Source: Candidatus Levybacteria bacterium RIFCSPHIGHO2_01_FULL_40_16
GTDB lineage: Bacteria > Patescibacteriota > Microgenomatia > Levybacterales > UBA12049
Length of the DNA stretch: 47,792 bases
Direction of reading: 5' to 3'
Assembly: GCA_001783805.1 (NCBI GenBank)
Contig: MFNS01000007.1
Location: forward strand, 155,975-203,766
Below the pieces are notes generated by a model, which searched no databases, was not told the origin of the DNA, and worked only from the letters and a program-made list of their open reading frames with translations. The translations under genes were made by a program, and so were the position numbers. This document shows positions 13,311 to 43,597 of this stretch, piece after piece. Numbering within the stretch: the stretch's first letter is position 1; each line of letters opens with the position of its first letter.

Positions 13311-13384
13311 GTGCCTGTAGCTTAATGGATACCCGCCGACGCTGAAGCTTTGGCGGGCAGGGAGCATTCAGATTGCCTGGCACG
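13311..13384 (+). pseudogene. tRNA-Arg-like relic with a palindromic insertion in the D-arm
   Basis: gtgcctg-tagcttaatggata, a 30-nt hairpin insert, then gagca; anticodon and T arms missing; ends ggcac. Confidence 0.65.
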
Positions 13385-13586: not shown

Positions 13587-13662
13587 GTCCTCGTAGTTCA
13601 ACTGGATAGACCTGCCCGCCATCCCGATTTAATCGGGAAGGCAAATGCAGGCGGGGCGTCAG
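13587..13662 (+). pseudogene. 5' half of a tRNA-Arg-like gene interrupted by a nested palindrome
   Basis: gtcctcgtagttcaactggataga, a 45-nt insert (13611-13655), then gcgtcag, abutting the next tRNA. Confidence 0.65.
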
Positions 13663-14273: not shown

Positions 14274-14912
14274 TTAACTTGTAGTTTTTTCCAGAGGGAA
14301 GTTTTTTTCAAGCCAAAGACCTGATTTTTCCATAAAATTTTGTCTGATGACCTCTCTGTAAGGCAGATAGGAGAGAAGAGCGGATTTAATGTGCTCGCGG
14401 TCGATATTACCCAAAGTTAGTGTTAGTTCTCCGGGAATAAACGAATGAGTCCGGATATGGACCACATCAACGCCTTCTTTCTTTTTAAAATAAAAATCAT
14501 ATAATTCCTGCCAGAGAAAAAAATGATCCTCAACTGTCACTCCTTCACTGGAAATTCGATATTTAAAATCAGACGGTGCAATCGAAGCTAGGGCAAAAGC
14601 GACAAAAAGCAGAGATAAAACTACCAGCATGAGCATATATTGGGAAAAAAGAAACAAAATCACTTCAATTAAGAGCATGATTAAGAGACCGGTTAAGTAG
14701 TATTGTTTACTTCTTTTTCGGAAGGGTCTTCCGGGAGCGCTCCATTCCAAAATCGTCTCAACCGTATTCTGATGCGCTTGAGGCTTGTTTAATTCCAAAG
14801 GTTCTTTGGGTAAACCTTGCCTGCCGGCAGGCAGGTCCAGCGGTTCCTTCGGAAGCATTTTTTCTCCCGCCTCAGCGGGATCCCGCATTTGCGGTGATTC
14901 TTGGGTAGCCAT
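14274..14912 (-). CDS. Conserved CPR membrane protein (2 TM plus PH-like C-terminus)
   Basis: LEWSAPGRPF, 2 TM, YRISSEGV..DHFFLWQEL; contains an LPAGRQG palindrome insert. Confidence 0.7.
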   Translation of the reverse strand: MATQESPQMRDPAEAGEKMLPKEPLDLPAGRQGLPKEPLELNKPQAHQNTVETILEWSAPGRPFRKRSKQYYLTGLLIMLLIEVILFLFSQYMLMLVVLSLLFVAFALASIAPSDFKYRISSEGVTVEDHFFLWQELYDFYFKKKEGVDVVHIRTHSFIPGELTLTLGNIDREHIKSALLSYLPYREVIRQNFMEKSGLWLEKNFPLEKTTS

Positions 14913-15611: not shown

Positions 15612-15848
15612 TCAAATTAAATGTCTTCTTAGGAATGCTCTCCCCGATCCTGATTTTAAATATTTTTCAAATTTAAAAGCCGTATATCTATTTTTAAAAG
15701 CAAAATATCCTATTAAAATCACTGGCAATCTAGATTTAGTTGCAGAGATGTTTCCCTTATTATGTCTAGCCACTCTTTCTTTTAGATCATCCGTGCAACC
15801 AATATAAGTCTTCTTATCTGAACATATTAGCAAATAAACATAGTGCAT
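15612..15848 (-). CDS. Stand-alone GIY-YIG nuclease (78 aa)
   Basis: YVY-x9-YIG, TDDLKERVARHN, ATKSRLP, FEKYLKSGSGR. Confidence 0.92.
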   Translation of the reverse strand: MHYVYLLICSDKKTYIGCTDDLKERVARHNKGNISATKSRLPVILIGYFAFKNRYTAFKFEKYLKSGSGRAFLRRHLI

Positions 15849-15855
15849 ATTTTTA

Positions 15856-15935
15856 GGCGGACTGCGTCTCGCCGTAGCTAAGCCGAATCCCGCCTTCGTT
15901 CTGCAAAGCAGAACTTCGGCGAGGCAAAGGCGGAG
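15856..15935. repeat. Nested CTTCG/CGTAG hairpins linking the tRNA-Ser 3' end to the GIY-YIG gene
   Basis: Inner cccgccttcg-ttctgc-aaa-gcagaa-cttcggcgagg (15889-15924); outer ctcgccgtagc...gcaaaggcggag overlaps the tRNA end. Confidence 0.75.
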
Positions 15936-16018
15936 GAGACAGGATTCGAACCTGCGTGAGCCTTTCGGCTCAGAGCTTTAGCAAAGCTCCGCAATTGACC
16001 GGACTATGCGACTCCTCC
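15931..16018 (-). tRNA. tRNA-Ser (GCT)
   Basis: Minus strand gagct-ttGCTaa-agctc, long variable arm, gttcgaatc. Confidence 0.95.
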
Positions 16019-16065
16019 AGAGCTTCATTATACCTTATTACTGGCTATTTTGCTAAACTGAACTC

Positions 16066-16800
16066 GTGGGATTATTGGATTTTTTCTTTCCCAAACATTG
16101 TGTGAATTGCCGGAAAATAGGGGATTACATTTGCGCCAACTGTTTTTCTTTTATCTCCTTTGATGTTTCCATGATTTGTTTGGTCTGCAACAAGGGTTCA
16201 ATTGACGGGTTAACTCATCCGGGGTGCCGGGGAAAATATACGATTGACGGGGCGTTTGCGGGAGTTAGTTACAAGAGAACTATTAAAAAATTAATTTATA
16301 ATTTTAAATACAAGCCTTACCTCGCCGACTTGAGAAGCGTTTTAACAGACCTTTTTTGCGAATCGCTTATTCAGCAGGAACTTTTTCAAAAAGCTCTCGG
16401 ATTTTCACCGATTCTGGTGCCGATTCCGCTTTACTCAAAAAGATTGCGAAAAAGAGGTTATAATCACGCAAAGCTATTGACAGAAGGCTTATCAAAAAAA
16501 CTTAATCTTAAAATGGTTGAGGTCTTGCAAAGAACCAAAGAAACCAAGTCTCAATTCGGATTAACCCTCAAAGAAAGAAAAGAAAACATCAAGGACGCTT
16601 TTACTCTTGCTCCAAATATCCCCGCCTTCGCCAAGGCTTCCACCTTCGCAAATGCTTCGGCGGACAGGTCGGCGGGCAAGGCCAATATCCTCCTCGTCGA
16701 CGATATCTTAACCACCGGCTCAACTCTTTTGGAAGCGGCCAAAATGCTTAAGAAAAGCGGAGTGAAAAAAGTCTGGGGATTAACTCTGGCAAGAGATTAA
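16066..16800 (+). CDS. comF: ComF-family phosphoribosyltransferase-like competence protein
   Basis: Double Zn-ribbon N-terminus, RGYNHA, ERKENI, LLVDDILTTGSTL; in-frame palindrome insert before the PRT motif. Confidence 0.9.
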   Translation: MGLLDFFFPKHCVNCRKIGDYICANCFSFISFDVSMICLVCNKGSIDGLTHPGCRGKYTIDGAFAGVSYKRTIKKLIYNFKYKPYLADLRSVLTDLFCESLIQQELFQKALGFSPILVPIPLYSKRLRKRGYNHAKLLTEGLSKKLNLKMVEVLQRTKETKSQFGLTLKERKENIKDAFTLAPNIPAFAKASTFANASADRSAGKANILLVDDILTTGSTLLEAAKMLKKSGVKKVWGLTLARD

Positions 16801-16865
16801 TTTATTCGTTGCTAGACCAAGCTTGTAATCGTAAGGCAACTTGCTATAAAATAGGTGGGATCTTT

Positions 16866-17909
16866 ATGGTTTCATATAAATTGCTTTCAAATAGCATTCT
16901 CTTTTTGGATGATTTGGAAAAAGAAATTGAAAGGGCAAAATTAAGTATTGATTTGCAATTTTTTACCTTTGAAGCAGATACGGTTGGCAACCGTGTAGCC
17001 AAAGCCTTGTTTAGAGCAAAACTCCGGGGAGTAAAGATAAGATTTATCATTGATCATTTTATTGACCTTTTCCATAATGATTATTTTATTCATCGGCCAA
17101 GGTTAAATAGGGTCTTGCAGAGAATCATTACCGGCGAATGGAAAAATACAAAAAAGCTGCTTGAATTAATGGGAAAACAAGGCATTGAAATAAAACGCAC
17201 CAATCCCCTGGGCTTTTTACGAAGAAGAGCATTTCACAGAAATCATAAAAAAATTGTGATTATAGACAGGAAAGATCTTAAACAAGCGCTAGCATATATC
17301 GGGGGTTGTAATCTTTCGGAACATAACGCATCCTGGAATGATTTTATGGTAAAAATGAAAGGAGATATGGTTCCTGTTTTGCAAAATGATTTTAATGCGA
17401 CTTGGCGGGATAAAGATATTAATGGCAAAGTTGAATTTAGTGATGGCGTGGTCATGACTGATTCTTCCAAGGGAAAGCATGAAATTATGCCCTACGTCAT
17501 CAATTTAATTAATAATTCTAAAAAACGTATCGTAATAGAATCGCCGTACTTACGCGGCAAACATATTTGGGAAAGCTTGATTGAGGCTTCCCGGCATGGA
17601 GTTGATGCGCGCATCATTGTCCCGCTGCATAATAATCATAAAAGGTTAGGCGCTCCGACCGGCAGGTCTTTGAAAAAACTGATTGAGAATGGCGTCAGGG
17701 TTTACCGGTTTAAGGAAAATGGAGGAATGACGCATGCCAAAGCACTGTTGGTAGATGATATTACGATGTTTGGTTCAAGCAATCTAAGCGAATTCTTAGC
17801 CAAAAGACTTTGCGAAATAAACATTGCGTCCCATAACAAAAGCATGATAAAACAAATGCAAAAAAAACTTGACGAGGATATGAGAATGTCAATACTGCAG
17901 AATAAGTAA
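16866..17909 (+). CDS. Phospholipase D / cardiolipin-synthase-like protein
   Basis: Two HKD motifs (HKKIVIID, HAKALLVD) with GGCN and GSSN. Confidence 0.88.
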   Translation: MVSYKLLSNSILFLDDLEKEIERAKLSIDLQFFTFEADTVGNRVAKALFRAKLRGVKIRFIIDHFIDLFHNDYFIHRPRLNRVLQRIITGEWKNTKKLLELMGKQGIEIKRTNPLGFLRRRAFHRNHKKIVIIDRKDLKQALAYIGGCNLSEHNASWNDFMVKMKGDMVPVLQNDFNATWRDKDINGKVEFSDGVVMTDSSKGKHEIMPYVINLINNSKKRIVIESPYLRGKHIWESLIEASRHGVDARIIVPLHNNHKRLGAPTGRSLKKLIENGVRVYRFKENGGMTHAKALLVDDITMFGSSNLSEFLAKRLCEINIASHNKSMIKQMQKKLDEDMRMSILQNK

Positions 17910-17926
17910 GGCGTGTAACTTCAAAA

Positions 17927-18766
17927 CTATTTCAACGCATTTTTGATTATTTCAGCGCTTTGACAAAGTTTATTTAAATCCGCATTGATCTCCATGGTAA
18001 TTAATCCTTGATAATTTTCTTCTTTTAAAGTTTCGAGGAGCTTGTCTATCGGTAATTCTCCCTCGTTTAAAGAAAGATGCGTGCCATTGGCTAAAAGCAG
18101 TTTTTTATTAAGCCAATGTCTCTTATAATCGCTGATATGGATATTCACAATTTTTTCTTTATTTTTTTTGTAAAACTCACAAATATCTCCCTTTGTTTGC
18201 GCTAAATGTGTCGTATCTAAAGTCATGGAAAGTCCTGCATTATTAACAACGGAAGAAAATTCATTGGTATTGTAAGTATAGGTTTTAAATATTGAGAAAG
18301 GGCTTTTTGGCATATTTTCAATTCCGAACTTAATCCCGTGTTTTTCTTGTAGATTTTTAAGCTCCTGAATAAATTCTTTATCAAATAATTTATTGCCTAT
18401 TGCATCTGAATGGAGAGTTATGATGCCCGCTGGAAAATTATTAGCGATATCGCACAATCTTTGTATCTCCGAAAGTGCAATGTTAAAAACATTATTATTA
18501 GATTGATGGACGCTAAGGATGGACATATTGTGTTCTTTTACGATATTTTTAATCTCCTTAATATCGTTTCCAGAGATAATGTTAGAGACACGTAATTCAA
18601 AACCGTCAACACCGGCTTTTTTAAGCGATTGCAGAATGTGGTCGATGGATTGCGCTTTGTACATCCGGTGTTTTTCATCTGCGATAACTAAATTATTAAG
18701 TTTATCGAGTAGCGTTTCCCTTGCTGGAATTAAGGCCGAAAAAGCAACGTACAAACAAATTTTCAT
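17927..18766 (-). CDS. Xylose-isomerase-like TIM barrel (sugar phosphate isomerase/epimerase)
   Basis: GIENMP, LDTTH, IHISD, GEL, ITMEI metal-binding pattern. Confidence 0.85.
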   Translation of the reverse strand: MKICLYVAFSALIPARETLLDKLNNLVIADEKHRMYKAQSIDHILQSLKKAGVDGFELRVSNIISGNDIKEIKNIVKEHNMSILSVHQSNNNVFNIALSEIQRLCDIANNFPAGIITLHSDAIGNKLFDKEFIQELKNLQEKHGIKFGIENMPKSPFSIFKTYTYNTNEFSSVVNNAGLSMTLDTTHLAQTKGDICEFYKKNKEKIVNIHISDYKRHWLNKKLLLANGTHLSLNEGELPIDKLLETLKEENYQGLITMEINADLNKLCQSAEIIKNALK

Positions 18767-18784
18767 ATCGCATTATTTTACCAC

Positions 18785-18807
18785 AAAAAACCCCGCCTCG
18801 CGGCGGG
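18785..18807 (-). terminator. Intrinsic terminator downstream of ssrA/GIY-YIG
   Basis: Minus strand cccgcc-gcga-ggcgggg followed by tttttt. Confidence 0.7.
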
Positions 18808-18968
18808 ATAGTGTAGAGATTAATGATATTTCTTGGAATCGAATTGAGGAGTATATTTTCAAATGGTCTCCGATATTAAATGGTTCAGCTTTGGCCTCAG
18901 CCTAAGTAAAGTATAGCGGTATCACAAGAGAGTATTGGAACATTATGACTTGATAAGATAACTTCAAA

Positions 18969-19205
18969 TTATATTAATCTTTTATTTCTAAATGCAAAGC
19001 CTGAATTAGTTTTTAGATACTTTTCAAAATGCAAAGCTTTCAGTTTCGAAACAAAAGCTGAGTAGTGTACCAATTTAAGAGGTCTTAAATTTCTTGTTTG
19101 AGAAACTTCCCCCTTTTGATGAGTAGCTACACGTTGTTTCAAATCAGATGAGTAACCAATATATAAAGTTTTATCCCTTAATTGAAGAATATAAACATAA
19201 TACAT
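18969..19205 (-). CDS. Stand-alone GIY-YIG nuclease (78 aa)
   Basis: YVY-x9-YIG, SDLKQRVATHQ, FEKYLKTNSG; start taken at MYYVY, which has TGC-TACAAT 6 nt upstream. Confidence 0.92.
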   Translation of the reverse strand: MYYVYILQLRDKTLYIGYSSDLKQRVATHQKGEVSQTRNLRPLKLVHYSAFVSKLKALHFEKYLKTNSGFAFRNKRLI

Positions 19206-19230
19206 GAGGAAATTGTAGCAGAAATAAAAA

Positions 19231-19369
19231 TGTCCCACTTCGTCCCTCTTCGCTTGCGCTACAATGGGATTACGTTTGGGACACTCTTCTTTTCAGCCAT
19301 AATGTCTTACTAACGAAGTGTGGCTGTGCCACTTCGTAGCTCATAAGTTTACTTATGAGCGAAGAGTGG
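19231..19369. repeat. Doublet of CTTCG/CGTAG hairpins linking the tmRNA 3' end to the GIY-YIG gene
   Basis: tgtcccacttcg-tccc[tcttcgcttgcgctac]..ggga-ttacgtttgggaca (19231-19283) and ccacttcgta-gctcataagt-tt-acttatgagc-gaagagtgg (19329-19369). Confidence 0.8.
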
Positions 19370-19735
19370 AGATGTCGAGCTGTGAGCTCGAGTCCAAGAA
19401 ATTACTATAAAAACTTCTACAAGCTTAGTTGATTATTTTGTGTCGCGCTATTTTTTTCTAATCAACAAGAATTAATAGCGTCAAGGTTGATAAATACAAT
19501 AAGGATAGAAACCAACTGCCCTCACCATCTCTCAACTGTAGTTATGCTTATAAAGTCCCGTTGAGAAAAGACTTCATAAACAGTTCAGCTTGTCTTAAGC
19601 GTATAAATACGCTTGTCGAAAAGCGAACGCTGGCATTTTATTGCTAGCATTTAATTTTTGATCAGTTTTACGACGTTTGATCGTTGTCGGCTTGCTGTTT
19701 TTTAAAGTGCAATCTTGTCGATGCAATGCATCCCC
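19367..19735 (-). ncRNA. ssrA: tmRNA
   Basis: 5' GGGGATG pairs with 3' CATCTCC-A, with a G3.U70 pair; tag ORF ASNKMPAFAFRQAYLYA* (19648-19595); adjacent to smpB. Confidence 0.92.
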
Positions 19736-19787: not shown

Positions 19788-20234
19788 TTAGCCTTGTTTT
19801 GCCTCTTCCAATTCCTGCTCGACTTCGCGTTGAATATCTTTTTTCTTGATTGATTCTTTTTTGTCATATTGTTTTTTGCCTTTGCCCAAGGCAATTTCGA
19901 CTTTGATAAAACTTTTGGTGGTGTACATTGACAGAGGAACCAAAGTCAGATTTTGACCTTCGGTTTTGGATTTTAGAGCAATAATTTCACTTTTGTGAAG
20001 TAATAATTTTCTAGTGCGCTGTTCGTCATAATTTTCGGGTCTCGCATATTGATAGGGGAAGATCTTGGCATTGATCAAATACGCCTCAGAACCCATAATC
20101 CGCACGTGAGACCCAGTTAAATCCGCATGTCCCAAGCGCACAGCCTTGACCTCGGCCCCATAAAGATTTATTCCGGCCTCAAATTTTTCCAAAATTTGAT
20201 AATCAAAAAACGCCCGCTTATTCGCAATTTTCAT
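19788..20234 (-). CDS. smpB: SsrA-binding protein
   Basis: NKRAFFDY, EAGI.L.G.EVK, RTRKLLLH, GKKQYDKKE. Confidence 0.97.
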   Translation of the reverse strand: MKIANKRAFFDYQILEKFEAGINLYGAEVKAVRLGHADLTGSHVRIMGSEAYLINAKIFPYQYARPENYDEQRTRKLLLHKSEIIALKSKTEGQNLTLVPLSMYTTKSFIKVEIALGKGKKQYDKKESIKKKDIQREVEQELEEAKQG

Positions 20235-20479
20235 TTATATGCTCCTTGTCTGTGTAGAATAGAAACTACAAAAATAGTTTTTTGCTCCGGTTGAATAAGA
20301 TAAAGTATTCTATATGGCCAAGCCCGTAGCGAATAAACCCCTGCAAATCTTCCTTCTAGTTTTTTCCCAAGATGAGGATTTGTTTCGAGTAATTTTAACC
20401 TTTGCTGTACTTTAAACAATTCTTTTTTTGGAAGACGTTTGCAGTGGGAGAGTGCTTTTGGGGTAATAATGATATGCAT
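20231..20479 (-). CDS. RelE/ParE-family toxin
   Basis: GKKLEG, YSLR..YRILY, ILHRQGAYK; its stop overlaps the smpB start (ATGA). Confidence 0.88.
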   Translation of the reverse strand: MHIIITPKALSHCKRLPKKELFKVQQRLKLLETNPHLGKKLEGRFAGVYSLRAWPYRILYLIQPEQKTIFVVSILHRQGAYK

Positions 20480-20484
20480 ACTGC

Positions 20485-20739
20485 TTATTTTAATTCGGAA
20501 AGAGGGATGCCCAAGCCCTTTTTTGCCTCTCTAATCCCAGTCAGAATGTCTTTTTCAGCTCCCGGAATTGCCAATATTTCCGCTGTTTCTTCCAATGATT
20601 CCAGCTCTTCTGCGCTGATTAAAGTTGCTTTTGGCTGGCCTTTGACAGTGATCACCACCCGATCCAGATACTTGTTTACTTTCGAAACGAGATTTGGAAG
20701 ATGTTGTCTCACGTCGGATATTGACATCAAATTAGTCAT
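20485..20739 (-). CDS. Phd/YefM-family antitoxin
   Basis: SISDVRQHL, VVITVKGQPKATLISAEELESLEET; start taken at MTNL. Confidence 0.9.
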   Translation of the reverse strand: MTNLMSISDVRQHLPNLVSKVNKYLDRVVITVKGQPKATLISAEELESLEETAEILAIPGAEKDILTGIREAKKGLGIPLSELK

Positions 20740-20748
20740 ATTAAATGA

Positions 20749-20777
20749 AGTGTACAACAACATGTACACCTTGTCAA
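20749..20777 (-). promoter_or_regulatory. TA promoter with YefM-type operator
   Basis: Minus strand TTGACA-17-TACACT, overlapped by two TGTACA palindromes 12 bp apart (20751, 20763), the arrangement known for yefM-yoeB operators. Confidence 0.75.
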
Positions 20778-20875
20778 TGAGTAAAATGGGCATATATACC
20801 ATGACCTCATGGGCTAAGAAGAGTATGTAGGCAGCTCATGTAGAATTTTTTGTCATAACTTGATACCATCAACTC

Positions 20876-23410
20876 ATGGACGATATTATCTCCCTCAAAG
20901 ATGGCTACATATTAGATAGAGCTACAAATAAACCCGTTGATATTAGAAAACCCGAAGAAGAAGTAAGACAGGAATATGAAAAAACCCTGCGTGAGGATTA
21001 TGACTACGATTATGAACGAATGGATATAGAAGTCTCCATTCAACGAGGAGAAGTCCACAACAAAAAAAATCAGAAAGAAAGAGCTGACATTGTAATTTAT
21101 AAAACCTCTAATAAAGCACAAAGAGACCAAAATAAAGATATTTTAGGAATTGTAGAAACAAAAAAACCGACAAAAAAAGATGGGATAGAACAACTAATGA
21201 GCTACATGTCTGCTACTACTGCTCTTTGGGGAGTGTGGATAAATGGCGAGGAAATAGAATATGTCTATAGAGACATAAAAACAGGAGAACTGAAAGAGGA
21301 TTATATTCATCAAATACCAAGTAGCGGTGAAACTTTTGAAGACATAGAAAGAATAACAAAAGAAGATTTAAAACCTGTTCAAAATCTGAAACCTATTTTT
21401 AGAAGAATGTATTACACTCTTTATTCAAATACCAACATAGCAAGAAAAGAAAAATTAGGAAGCGAAATGACAAGATTGATTTTTTGTAAAATTTATGATG
21501 AGAAATATGATTTAGATAAACCACCAAAATTTAAAATAGGCTTTAATGATAGCCCCGAAGATGTCAAAAAGAATGTAGAAGAATTATGGGAGAAAGTTAA
21601 AAAATACCTTGTTGAAGATGGTATTTTTGAACAGCACGAAAAAATAGTCTTAGACCCTAAATCAATTGTTTATATTGTTAGAGAATTAGAAAAATATAGC
21701 TTGACGAAAACTGACAAAGATGTTATCGGAGACGCTTTTGAAGTTTTTGCAGAAAGACAATTTGTGGGTGATAAAGGGGAGTTTTTCACACCACGCCAAG
21801 TTGTAAAGATGGCAGTAGATATTATCAATCCTCAACCGGAAGAAAGATTATTAGACCCTGCCTGTGGAAGCGGAGGATTTTTAATTTATGCCCTAGAACA
21901 TGTATGGGGCATTATGAACAATAGCCCAAAATATAAAGGAAGTAATCTTGAGGATGAAAAGAAAGAATTTGCCCGCAAATACTTTTATGGTATTGATAAA
22001 GAAATTGATTTAGTAAAAATTTGCAAAGCGTATATGTCTATTATTGGAGATGGAAGAAGCAGTATTGTCAAAGCCGATAGCCTCAAAAGTCCCGACGAAT
22101 GGGAAAACGCTGCGAGAACTATTTTAACCGAAGACGGCAAAGACCAAATGAAGAAATTTGATGTTATCTTAACAAATCCTCCCTTTGGCAGTAAAATAAA
22201 AGTCCATCACGAATATATATTAAAAAATTATGACTTAGGACATAAATGGATATTTAAAGATGAGAAATGGATAATGACAAATGAAACAAAAGAGACAGAA
22301 CCACAAATACTTTTTATTGAATTATGTCTTAATTTATTAAAAGATGGAGGAAGAATGGCGATAGTTCTCCCTGATGGTATTTTTGGAAATCCTACTGATG
22401 GTTATATACGAGAATGGATAAAAGATAAAGCAGAAATTTTGGCAATTATTGATTGCCCGCATAATACATTTATGCCTCATACTCACACAAAAACCTCCCT
22501 ACTTGTTCTTAAAAAATGGGATAAAACAAAGCAAAAAAATTACCCAATAATGATGAGTGTTGTGAATAAATGTGGACATGATACAAGAGGGAATGAAGTT
22601 TATACAAAAAATGAAAATGATAAGGAGATTTTAGATGAAGAGTTTTCCAAAGTTTCCGAGATTTATAAAACATATCAGAATAGAGTTATAAAGGGATTTG
22701 ATAGATTAGGCTTTACTCTTTACGAAGGTGGTTTAATAAATGGTATCTTAATACCAAGATATTATGACCCTGACACAATAAAAGATATTCAGAAATTAGA
22801 AGATACGGGGCGGTATGAAATGAAGTCAATTCAAGACCTTGTTGATGAAAAAGTCTTAGAAATTAAAGGAGCCGGTGGAACTGCACCAAGTAAAGACTAC
22901 AATATCTATGATGAAATCCCATTTTTGAGAACATCCGATATAGGGGCTTGGGAAACCAGAAATTATGCTGTGCAGAATGTGAATGAACTCACTTATCTTA
23001 AATATAAAGACAAGCAGAGTTTAAAAGAGGGAGACATGTTGTTTATAAAGGATGGAACATATAGAATTGGAGAAACTTTAATTCTTACTAAATATGATTT
23101 AAAAATGCTTGTTCAAAGTCATTTTCTAAAAATAAGGTCGCTTGATAAAGATGGTATGGACCCGTATTTGCTTCTATATTTGCTCCATGTTCCTGTAGTT
23201 AGAAAACAGATAGATGAAAAAACTTTTGTCCAAGCAACTTTATCTACAATTGGTGATAGATTAAACGAAATCATAATTCCAATTCCAAAAGACAAAGGAA
23301 TAAGAGAAAAAATAGGAATTGCTATGAGAGAAAAATTAGAAGCAAGAGCTAGGTTAAGAGCAGAAATAAGAGAAGTTTTTAATAAAGGCATAGAAGATGA
23401 AAATTCATAA
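20876..23410 (+). CDS. Fused restriction endonuclease / N6-adenine methyltransferase / TRD (type IIG-like or type I-derived)
   Basis: N-terminal KPEEEVRQ..RADIVIY..IVETKK nuclease motif; GEFFTP, LLDPACGSGGFL, NPPF; C-terminal HsdS-like TRD. Confidence 0.9.
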   Translation: MDDIISLKDGYILDRATNKPVDIRKPEEEVRQEYEKTLREDYDYDYERMDIEVSIQRGEVHNKKNQKERADIVIYKTSNKAQRDQNKDILGIVETKKPTKKDGIEQLMSYMSATTALWGVWINGEEIEYVYRDIKTGELKEDYIHQIPSSGETFEDIERITKEDLKPVQNLKPIFRRMYYTLYSNTNIARKEKLGSEMTRLIFCKIYDEKYDLDKPPKFKIGFNDSPEDVKKNVEELWEKVKKYLVEDGIFEQHEKIVLDPKSIVYIVRELEKYSLTKTDKDVIGDAFEVFAERQFVGDKGEFFTPRQVVKMAVDIINPQPEERLLDPACGSGGFLIYALEHVWGIMNNSPKYKGSNLEDEKKEFARKYFYGIDKEIDLVKICKAYMSIIGDGRSSIVKADSLKSPDEWENAARTILTEDGKDQMKKFDVILTNPPFGSKIKVHHEYILKNYDLGHKWIFKDEKWIMTNETKETEPQILFIELCLNLLKDGGRMAIVLPDGIFGNPTDGYIREWIKDKAEILAIIDCPHNTFMPHTHTKTSLLVLKKWDKTKQKNYPIMMSVVNKCGHDTRGNEVYTKNENDKEILDEEFSKVSEIYKTYQNRVIKGFDRLGFTLYEGGLINGILIPRYYDPDTIKDIQKLEDTGRYEMKSIQDLVDEKVLEIKGAGGTAPSKDYNIYDEIPFLRTSDIGAWETRNYAVQNVNELTYLKYKDKQSLKEGDMLFIKDGTYRIGETLILTKYDLKMLVQSHFLKIRSLDKDGMDPYLLLYLLHVPVVRKQIDEKTFVQATLSTIGDRLNEIIIPIPKDKGIREKIGIAMREKLEARARLRAEIREVFNKGIEDENS

Positions 23411-43431: not shown

Positions 43432-43486
43432 ATGCGAATTTATACGGATTGTTAATACGAATAAATTCGAATTTAATATTTAGATT

Positions 43487-43597
43487 TAAAGTTAGGTAAT
43501 CATGGTGTAAATCCATGACTGTGCCGCAACTGTTAAAGTCAGAAAACTAACTTTATTTAAATTCCCGAGCAGGATCTTTTCATTGTCCTTCTCGGGA
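43487..43597 (+). promoter_or_regulatory. Compact cobalamin riboswitch with downstream expression hairpin
   Basis: Closing stem taaagttag/ctaacttta, T-loop hairpin catgg-tgtaaat-ccatg, ctgtgccgcaactgt, B12-box-like aagtcaga; hairpin 43563-97 before the adenosyltransferase start. Confidence 0.8.

Follow-up and report, generated by a model that had tools for sequence, protein, structure and literature searches.

Small GIY-YIG nuclease genes with structured leaders as candidate selfish cassettes of tRNA and tmRNA genes in Candidatus Levybacteria

Two short open reading frames (ORFs), here designated g1 and g2, are located in a stretch of 47,792 nucleotides from Candidatus Levybacteria bacterium RIFCSPHIGHO2_01_FULL_40_16 (assembly GCA_001783805.1, contig MFNS01000007.1, positions 155,975 to 203,766), which is referred to as the window. 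Each encodes a stand-alone GIY-YIG nuclease of 78 residues and follows a stable-RNA gene, tRNA-Ser(GCT) in case of g1 and transfer-messenger RNA (tmRNA) in case of g2, from which it is separated by a structured leader. Leader and ORF form one cassette, the parts of which move together. With modest confidence, we lean towards reading this cassette as a selfish, homing-endonuclease-like element that is directed at stable-RNA genes and makes use of their transcription.

All features of the two loci lie on the minus strand, in which respect an earlier description from the letters alone (the sequence-only reading) had to be corrected. Its statement that both genes are co-oriented with the two RNA genes and just downstream of them agrees with the coordinates as well as with ARAGORN and Rfam. 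Read along the minus strand, smpB (19788-20234; SmpB Pfam match, E 3e-50) is located just upstream of the tmRNA gene ssrA (19364-19735; Rfam RF00023, full length, 108 bits at a cut-off of 47), which is followed by the 158-nt leader of g2 (19206-19363) and g2 itself (18969-19205). About 3 kb further on follow tRNA-Ser(GCT) (15929-16018; ARAGORN, and Rfam RF00005 with 50 bits), the 80-nt leader of g1 (15849-15928) and g1 (15612-15848). The ATG of g2 at 19205 agrees with the start seen in the family; a longer ORF beginning with GTG at 19238 would start within the last hairpin of the leader. ARAGORN misses the tmRNA in this genome and in several relatives, whereas Rfam detects it; absence of tmRNA as judged by ARAGORN is unreliable in this lineage.

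Both proteins match the GIY-YIG family PF01541 above cut-off (E 6e-14 for g1 and 1e-13 for g2). They are 50% identical over all 78 residues without a gap and have the motifs YVY..YIG and FEKYLK..SG.AF..LI in common, which bears out the claim of two paralogous genes with shared motifs. A profile of the paralogs of this genome matches the UPF0213 structures 1zg2 (BH0048; E 2e-16) and 1ywl (EF2693; 5e-14) and, more weakly, Slx1 (4e-6). These stand-alone UPF0213/bacterial Slx1-like proteins belong to the same family and likewise consist of a single catalytic domain of the same size. In the family alignment, residues Y5, Y15, G17 and R25 are invariant and H29 and E61 are invariant or nearly so; E61 is taken here as the catalytic glutamate, based on alignment to 1zg2 and on the catalytic glutamates of UvrC and I-TevI. 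Judged by these matches, g1 and g2 are intact genes of UPF0213/Slx1-type nucleases; NCBIfam contains no model naming them. The family, in which names such as YhbQ and YazA are in use, is very widespread and has no assigned function.

Family members measure 78-91 residues, of which residues 1-69 make up the GIY-YIG domain. The genome, 898 kb in 7 contigs, carries 11 divergent paralogs. All 21 genomes of the order contain the gene, with 2-11 matches each. Of 201 genomes sampled across the phylum, 120 have a match at E 1e-10, and the copy number reaches 12. Some copies are broken, giving split or partial matches, as is expected for selfish genes. Only 2 relatives were found among 2.9 million viral contigs, and a phage origin is thus unsupported.

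Association with RNA genes was scored as presence of a tRNA or tmRNA at a distance of at most 200 nt. In the genome under study, 8 of the 11 paralogs have such a neighbor on the same strand, as compared to 59 of 931 ORFs (Fisher p 2e-8), corresponding to an about tenfold enrichment over the base rate. For 20 relatives of the same order, 98 loci were inspected, and the 108 matches listed there yielded 106 full-length copies. ARAGORN placed a tRNA beside 54 of these (upstream only in 21 cases, downstream only in 21, on both sides in 12); with the own genome included, 75 of 76 adjacent tRNAs are on the strand of the nuclease gene. Rfam, run on 39 of the 49 loci containing copies that ARAGORN had left unlinked, added 5 copies located 106-161 nt behind tmRNA and 3 beside tRNAs missed by ARAGORN, and at least 62 of 106 copies are therefore linked. 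Two more copies (L132, L136) lie behind 3' halves of tRNA-Ser truncated at contig ends. One family member resides within a 16S rRNA gene (L135:695-1852, where positions 1-860 of the Rfam model are stretched over 1158 nt), and another is located 165 nt from a group I intron (L117:801-1398).

At the level of the phylum, the best 29 foreign loci contained 31 g1/g2-like copies. Of these, 24 are located at most 200 nt from a tRNA or tmRNA, in all cases on the same strand, including 10 copies behind tRNA-Ser and 4 behind tmRNA. The two cases in the window thus represent the two commonest positions of the clade, and the anticipated enrichment for tRNA and tmRNA neighbors was found in the genome itself, among its relatives and across the phylum. 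It had further been proposed that the module docks at tRNA 3' ends. This applies to the g1 clade, all six members of which are directly behind tRNA-Ser (GCT three times, TGA three times), but not to the family as a whole: relative to the adjacent tRNAs, 38 genes are upstream and 38 downstream, and docking at 3' ends accordingly fits some clades only.

A clade of a different kind is represented by the paralog at L007 (330-700), which is not linked to a tRNA. Its members in loci L011-L090 are 58-82% identical across Omnitrophota, Planctomycetota, Desulfobacteraceae, Clostridia and the Candidate Phyla Radiation (CPR). An exact inverted repeat of at least 10 nt brackets the gene in 15 of 79 loci, as compared to 2 of 79 in the control, and often contains the word CCCGTTAGAGA.

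Both leaders fold more stably than shuffled sequences (z -2.9 for g1 and -4.6 for g2). Their signature consists of a helix that is interrupted by a 3x3 internal loop of the type G-N-A/G-N-A; the hairpin signature that had been pointed out in both spacers is real and is kept in homologous leaders of other genomes. A kink-turn interpretation of the loop was rejected upon inspection of the sequence, which does not contain a 3-nt bulge followed by tandem G.A pairs on one strand. In the g1 leader, the outer helix of hairpin A (15889-15923, minus strand) contains one bulged U and is separated by a GAA/GAA internal loop from an inner stem-loop; hairpin B (15856-15873, minus strand) is located just ahead of the start codon. 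The same order, i.e. bulged-U helix, G-N-A/G-N-A loop and a variable inner stem-loop, is conserved up to the level of the phylum, and the small hairpin right before the start codon is nearly invariant. Both helices are kept in 10 homologous leaders, with compensatory changes in 6 of the 15 predicted pairs.

The g2 leader is built from four parts, all on the minus strand in the window: a first hairpin overlapping the tmRNA 3' end (19329-19369), a small hairpin (19320-19332), the 3' strand of a long-range helix (19282-19289) and a last hairpin (19232-19282) with a GUA/GAA internal loop. Homologous leaders from three relatives and 13 phylum-level loci, found behind tmRNA and many different tRNAs, exhibit the same architecture. 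Its first element, which starts 0-5 nt past the RNA 3' end, is a compact hairpin (helix/CUUCGC-loop-GCU(U/A)CG/helix). A small GGC..GCC hairpin comes next, and then the 3' strand of the long-range helix, whose partner is formed by the first bases of the leader. The last hairpin, inversely oriented and carrying the G-N-A/G-N-A loop, is followed by a U-run in the window. In 12 correctly anchored leaders, 8-9 of the 9 pairs of the long-range helix are formed, involving nine different covarying tetramers. All 9 pairs are present in 6 of 17 leaders as compared to 0.4% of shuffles; in 5 of these 17 the regular expression had anchored on the tRNA's own 3' end, which renders their scores meaningless, although the same helix is visible by eye. 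The 5' strand matches its own partner at 3.65 of 4 positions, but foreign partners at only 2.07. This covariation indicates that the leader works as a folded single strand, which may be either RNA, i.e. the transcript, or DNA. No Rfam 15 model reached its gathering score in the spacers of the window, and only chance-level matches appeared at E values up to 10.

Two details of the sequence-only reading were confirmed in part. The 3' terminus of the RNA was thought to serve as left arm of the first hairpin: this is the case for tmRNA, where CCAC pairs with GUGG and the covarying long-range helix lends support, but for tRNA-Ser only a weak pairing of 3 bp can be drawn. The tails following the first hairpins, described as similar, resemble each other only modestly and form two different small hairpins. 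The orientation of the first hairpin relative to the gene is also opposite in the two leaders, reading CGAAG..CGAAG in the sense strand of g1 and CUUCG..CUACG in that of g2.

That nuclease gene and hairpin leader form a module recurring behind tRNA-like 3' ends, as had been suggested, is supported by the g1 and g2 clades. Four members of the g2 clade possess homologous leaders, which all open with (T)CCAC(T/A)CTTCGCC, and occupy four different sites in four genomes. The cassette is located behind tmRNA in the own genome, behind tRNA-Ala in L119 (the tRNA was confirmed by Rfam), immediately after the stop codon of a protein gene in L102 and, in L103, between smpB and tmRNA, where it is inserted in the 3' end of smpB on the opposite strand. 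The SmpB protein of L103 is 89% identical to SmpB of the window up to residue ~134 and then diverges into a new C-terminus, while the displaced old C-terminal codons (..EQEMEEANQG*) remain beside tmRNA. The new C-terminus and the left-over codons together indicate an insertion into the smpB 3' end.

Exchange was also observed at the 3' flank of tmRNA. Four relatives, three from the same genus and one from another family, carry a different cassette with a different leader at this position (clade C), and a fifth relative carries yet another one. In G005, the genome used for this comparison, the terminator and the gene downstream of the tmRNA cassette are the same as in the window. The clade-C type of leader and cassette additionally occurs behind tRNA-Arg (L110). 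Finally, three genomes (G001, G003 and G017) carry a cassette behind tRNA-Ser(tga), but the window has none at this place. The comparison of tRNA-Ser and ssrA loci among relatives, which had been proposed as a check, thus revealed replacement at the tmRNA flank and tRNA-Ser(tga) loci with and without a cassette. Together with the smpB insertion, these cases provide the presence/absence or replacement at orthologous sites that characterizes homing-type elements.

Copies in front of a tRNA have left scars. Their stop codon is mostly located from -6 to ~25 nt relative to the tRNA, and directly ahead of the ORF start lies a pseudo-tRNA fragment that copies the 5' part of the same tRNA, from position 1 to about 13-40. 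One or two GC-rich hairpins usually interrupt this fragment in its D-loop. It was seen in 15 of 19 inspected loci and, by a BLAST criterion, in 11 of 112 upstream regions as compared to 1 of 1000 random windows. Hairpin-interrupted tRNA copies beside intact ones also exist in the own genome. Insertions evidently concentrate at the tRNA genes of this lineage, where they are tolerated because an intact copy sits beside. Interpretation of the hairpin-interrupted tRNAs as intron-containing genes was rejected, as an uninterrupted tRNA of the same kind is located beside each inspected case.

Further irregular tRNA loci were noticed. At two places a whole tRNA-Val is nested within an interrupted tRNA-Val of the same anticodon (L009:241-421, i.e. 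C1:148940-149120, and L003:641-831, i.e. C1:250640-250830); the break is in the anticodon loop in one and in the D-loop in the other, and an imperfect inverted repeat of the CCTGCCCG.. type flanks the inner tRNA-Val. The window contains two tRNA fragments with palindromes. One (13314-13361), just upstream of the intact tRNA-Arg(gcg), is a pseudo 5' fragment of tRNA-Arg whose D-loop harbors a GC-rich palindrome; the other (13596-13656), a D-arm fragment plus palindrome, is found between tRNA-Ser(cga) and tRNA-Arg(ccg).

In the reading towards which we lean, g1 and g2 belong to a family of compact cassettes that extends across the phylum. Each cassette is composed of a GIY-YIG ORF of ~78-90 residues and a cognate structured leader of 80-160 nt. 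The leader is built of G-N-A/G-N-A hairpins resembling repetitive extragenic palindromes (REPs), with two oppositely oriented hairpins joined by the long-range helix in the g2 type. Such cassettes are lodged co-directionally in stable-RNA transcription units, behind tRNA-Ser or tmRNA, between or before tRNAs and occasionally in rRNA genes. The putative nuclease would break DNA at or near conserved tRNA-type genes, and the cassette would be copied in during repair of the break. The host tRNA would be preserved in one of two ways: the cassette ends at the tRNA boundary, or an undamaged copy remains beside the disrupted remnant. Read-through from the promoter of the tRNA or tmRNA gene may transcribe the ORF, which tRNA 3' processing would then release, and expression may be held low by the leader hairpins, among them the terminator-like last hairpin of g2. 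The data show membership in the family, the adjacency, movement of cassettes between loci, the conserved and covarying leader structure and the pseudo-tRNA scars; we infer that the proteins are active nucleases, that they act on DNA and at which site, that ORF and RNA gene are co-transcribed, and what the hairpins do. A selfish cassette of the homing type best fits the multi-copy state, the clade-wise targets, the swaps, the insertion into smpB, the scars and the broken copies.

Several observations weigh against this interpretation. The proteins of 78-91 residues do not contain a separate DNA-binding domain that could confer site specificity, whereas, to our knowledge, every characterized GIY-YIG homing endonuclease possesses one; site specificity is thus left unexplained. 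An alignment of four paralogs retrieved only the clade of L007, in which merely 1 of 80 loci has an adjacent tRNA and to which docking at tRNA 3' ends likewise does not apply. Two or three clades in the tree of the order have no RNA neighbor. This tree (FastTree, 117 copies, ~80 residues) groups members by genomic context, but is weakly resolved, with 50 of 114 branches open, and the counts obtained for the relatives are not phylogenetically independent. Clade-C cassettes of different families are 84-87% identical in ORF DNA, as compared to 61-64% in tmRNA and ~50% in the spacers, which indicates strong constraint on the protein rather than recent transfer of the whole unit. Moreover, the positions behind tRNA-Ser and tmRNA are conserved throughout the phylum. 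Constraint on the ORF and conserved positions would be expected of a host function, but equally of a selfish lineage that has persisted for long. No empty and filled alleles within one population were observed in four metagenome DNA runs, whose short contigs with low-confidence joints (sides under 30-40 letters) do not allow a verdict on this point. The missing DNA-binding domain and the long-term conservation of ORF and position keep two rivals alive, namely recognition of the hairpins and a function for the host.

The first of these rivals had been put forward in the sequence-only reading: a GIY-YIG analog of the REP-RAYT system, in which the nuclease recognizes the G-N-A hairpin as folded single-stranded DNA and mobilizes REPIN-like elements, the cognate leader hairpins marking the genes. 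We regard it as rather unlikely, but parts of it stand. Short GC-rich palindromes are dispersed in the genome, as in REP/REPIN-RAYT systems, the nuclease gene is located beside cognate hairpins, and the g2-type leader is an oppositely oriented pair of exactly the compact hairpin type that is scattered as solo copies. A pattern for this hairpin has 25 matches in the genome as compared to 0-9 (mean about 3.6) in 20 shuffles. Thirteen of them share a very uniform 30-nt form, only ~3 are near GIY-YIG genes and several are in frame inside ORFs. One solo copy in the window (16638-16665, minus strand), composed of helix, CGAAGC-loop-GCGAAG and helix, is in frame within a comF-like ORF (16066-16800, plus strand); the ComF homolog of G001 reads differently at this place when the two translations are compared unaligned. 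A loose structural scan for helix/G-N-A/helix was too unspecific (116 matches versus 65-85 in shuffles) and was replaced by this sequence pattern. In 200 other genomes of the phylum, one of them unpublished (G174), hairpin abundance was measured as matches to the one crude pattern in excess of a reversed control pattern, with statistics that ignore phylogeny. The excess tracks GIY-YIG copy number (Spearman rho 0.41; control pattern alone 0.06): 25 of 69 genomes with at least two copies are hairpin-rich, as compared to 9 of 131 others, and of the 34 hairpin-rich genomes 32 have GIY-YIG genes and 8 are devoid of any Y1 transposase.

What speaks against this rival is a canonical Y1 (RAYT-like) transposase in the same genome. 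Its ORF of 237 residues (C4:18449-19245, outside the window) is flanked on both sides by an identical perfect 29-nt palindrome, which shares the words CTTCGC/GCGAAG and has ~7 copies in the genome. Among the relatives, 15 of 21 carry Y1 genes, as do 80 of the 201 genomes sampled from the phylum and 26 of the 34 hairpin-rich ones. Y1 presence also predicts hairpin richness (26 of 79 versus 8 of 121 genomes; rho 0.26) and correlates with GIY-YIG genes (rho 0.29, n=200). Hairpin abundance is thus not independent of the nuclease clade, but the comparison does not single out GIY-YIG as the mobilizer, since Y1 tracks the excess as well. In addition, the catalytic domain of g1 and g2 is of the GIY-YIG and not the HUH/Y1 fold, the genes are present in multiple divergent copies, unlike a single domesticated RAYT, and around the ORF, hairpins of the dispersed type are present on one side only, in the 5' leader.

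The CCTGCCCGC-type palindrome is treated separately from the compact G-N-A hairpin and the Y1-flanking palindrome, and a GC-rich palindromic mini-element is located at 14815-14838, in frame within the ORF 14274-14912. The comF segment shows a contig depth 2- to 15-fold above its neighbors in four metagenome runs, as a repeat would.

The second rival, to which we assign a still lower probability, is a host function in tRNA or tmRNA metabolism. The nucleases would act on RNA or on intermediates of tRNA-gene transcription or replication, would be co-expressed with tRNA operons, and the leaders would have cis-regulatory or processing roles. Such a function would account for the phylum-wide positions behind tRNA-Ser and tmRNA, for the strong conservation of the ORFs and for structured, covarying leaders that begin at the tRNA 3' end. 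Support also comes from Dunin-Horkawicz et al. 2006 (PMC1564403), who report that bacterial Slx1-like GIY-YIG domains form fusions or operons with a COG4123 methyltransferase and, in one instance, a fusion with a TrmH-like tRNA methyltransferase, and who suggest a role in RNA metabolism. However, eleven divergent paralogs in a 0.9-Mb genome, copy numbers varying from 0 to 12 and the 81 of 201 phylum genomes without a match at E 1e-10 argue against it. Cassette swaps, the smpB insertion, pseudo-tRNA scars and broken copies are likewise hard to square with a housekeeping enzyme. The COG4123 enzymes are now annotated as tRNA m6A37 methyltransferase TrmN6. Passive hitch-hiking, i.e. small genes residing by chance near tRNAs and hairpins representing ordinary terminators, is already disfavored and appears very improbable. 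The genome is compact, and the last hairpin of g2 with its U-run resembles an intrinsic terminator, but the enrichment, the shared strand of almost all adjacent tRNAs and the phylum-wide conservation of clade-specific leaders contradict this explanation.

The selfish-cassette interpretation has parallels among known systems, as homing-type elements typically settle in conserved stable-RNA genes. Phage T4 SegB is reported to be a GIY-YIG homing endonuclease encoded within the phage tRNA cluster (PMC2330249). Like it, the cassettes have a free GIY-YIG gene between tRNA genes, and inheritance by cleavage and repair together with the flanks is the mechanism proposed here. Seg proteins and I-TevI are about 200-250 residues long and have a DNA-binding domain at their C-terminus. 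The CPR proteins, by contrast, have 78-90 residues, are encoded on bacterial chromosomes and are accompanied by a structured leader and by remnants of tRNAs. Integrative elements at tRNA or tmRNA attachment sites prefer the same sites and leave a partial tRNA duplicate at one end; the cassette differs in having no integrase, in its size of ~0.35-0.45 kb and in a duplicate that consists of the 5' part of the tRNA, 13-40 nt, and not of a fixed 3' core. The rRNA genes of CPR bacteria have been described to contain non-intron insertions with GIY-YIG ORFs (J Bacteriol 2024, PMC11270868), and these ORFs are regarded there as sparse and outside homing. They share phylum, superfamily and residence in stable-RNA genes with the cassettes, one of which was likewise found in a 16S rRNA gene (L135, see above). 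The main text of that article does not contain the word 'tRNA', nor does it describe the tRNA/tmRNA association or the leaders. Likewise, the literature that could be searched, i.e. without subscription journals and supplements, yielded no UPF0213 or GIY-YIG genes in tRNA or tmRNA operons and no such leaders; multi-copy expansion, cognate hairpin leaders and residence in tRNA/tmRNA operons are not described there for UPF0213 proteins. We rate the cassettes as belonging to a known kind, the free-standing mobile GIY-YIG nuclease genes, with the structured leader and the way of living in tRNA genes as the undescribed features.

A bolder variant, which we put forward only tentatively, is that the cassettes represent a new self-complementing mobile element of stable-RNA genes. 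Introns keep their host alive by splicing and inteins by protein excision. The element would instead invade at the DNA level without either process, by ending at the tRNA boundary or by bringing or restoring an intact tRNA. Its nuclease would recognize the paired leader hairpins, making it a GIY-YIG counterpart of REPIN-RAYT and a possible source of the CPR G-N-A hairpins, including those within protein-coding genes.

Other features of the window comprise an AdoCbl-II riboswitch match at 43478-43557 (57.5 bits), a pair of small overlapping ORFs of toxin-antitoxin-like appearance at 20231-20802 and a long ORF at 20876-23410 resembling a fusion of restriction-modification methylase and specificity subunits.

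For the UPF0213 family, the phylum-wide link to tRNA, tmRNA and rRNA genes and the cognate leaders provide concrete candidate substrates, namely tRNA-gene DNA and hairpins with G-N-A loops. The leader is a well-defined structured element absent from Rfam, and annotation of these genomes is affected as well, as interrupted tRNA copies and tmRNA are missed by ARAGORN. If mobile, the cassettes, at ~0.4 kb, would rank with the smallest known nuclease elements that are autonomous, and they would help to explain the tRNA fragments, nested tRNAs and palindromes that litter the tRNA loci of CPR bacteria.

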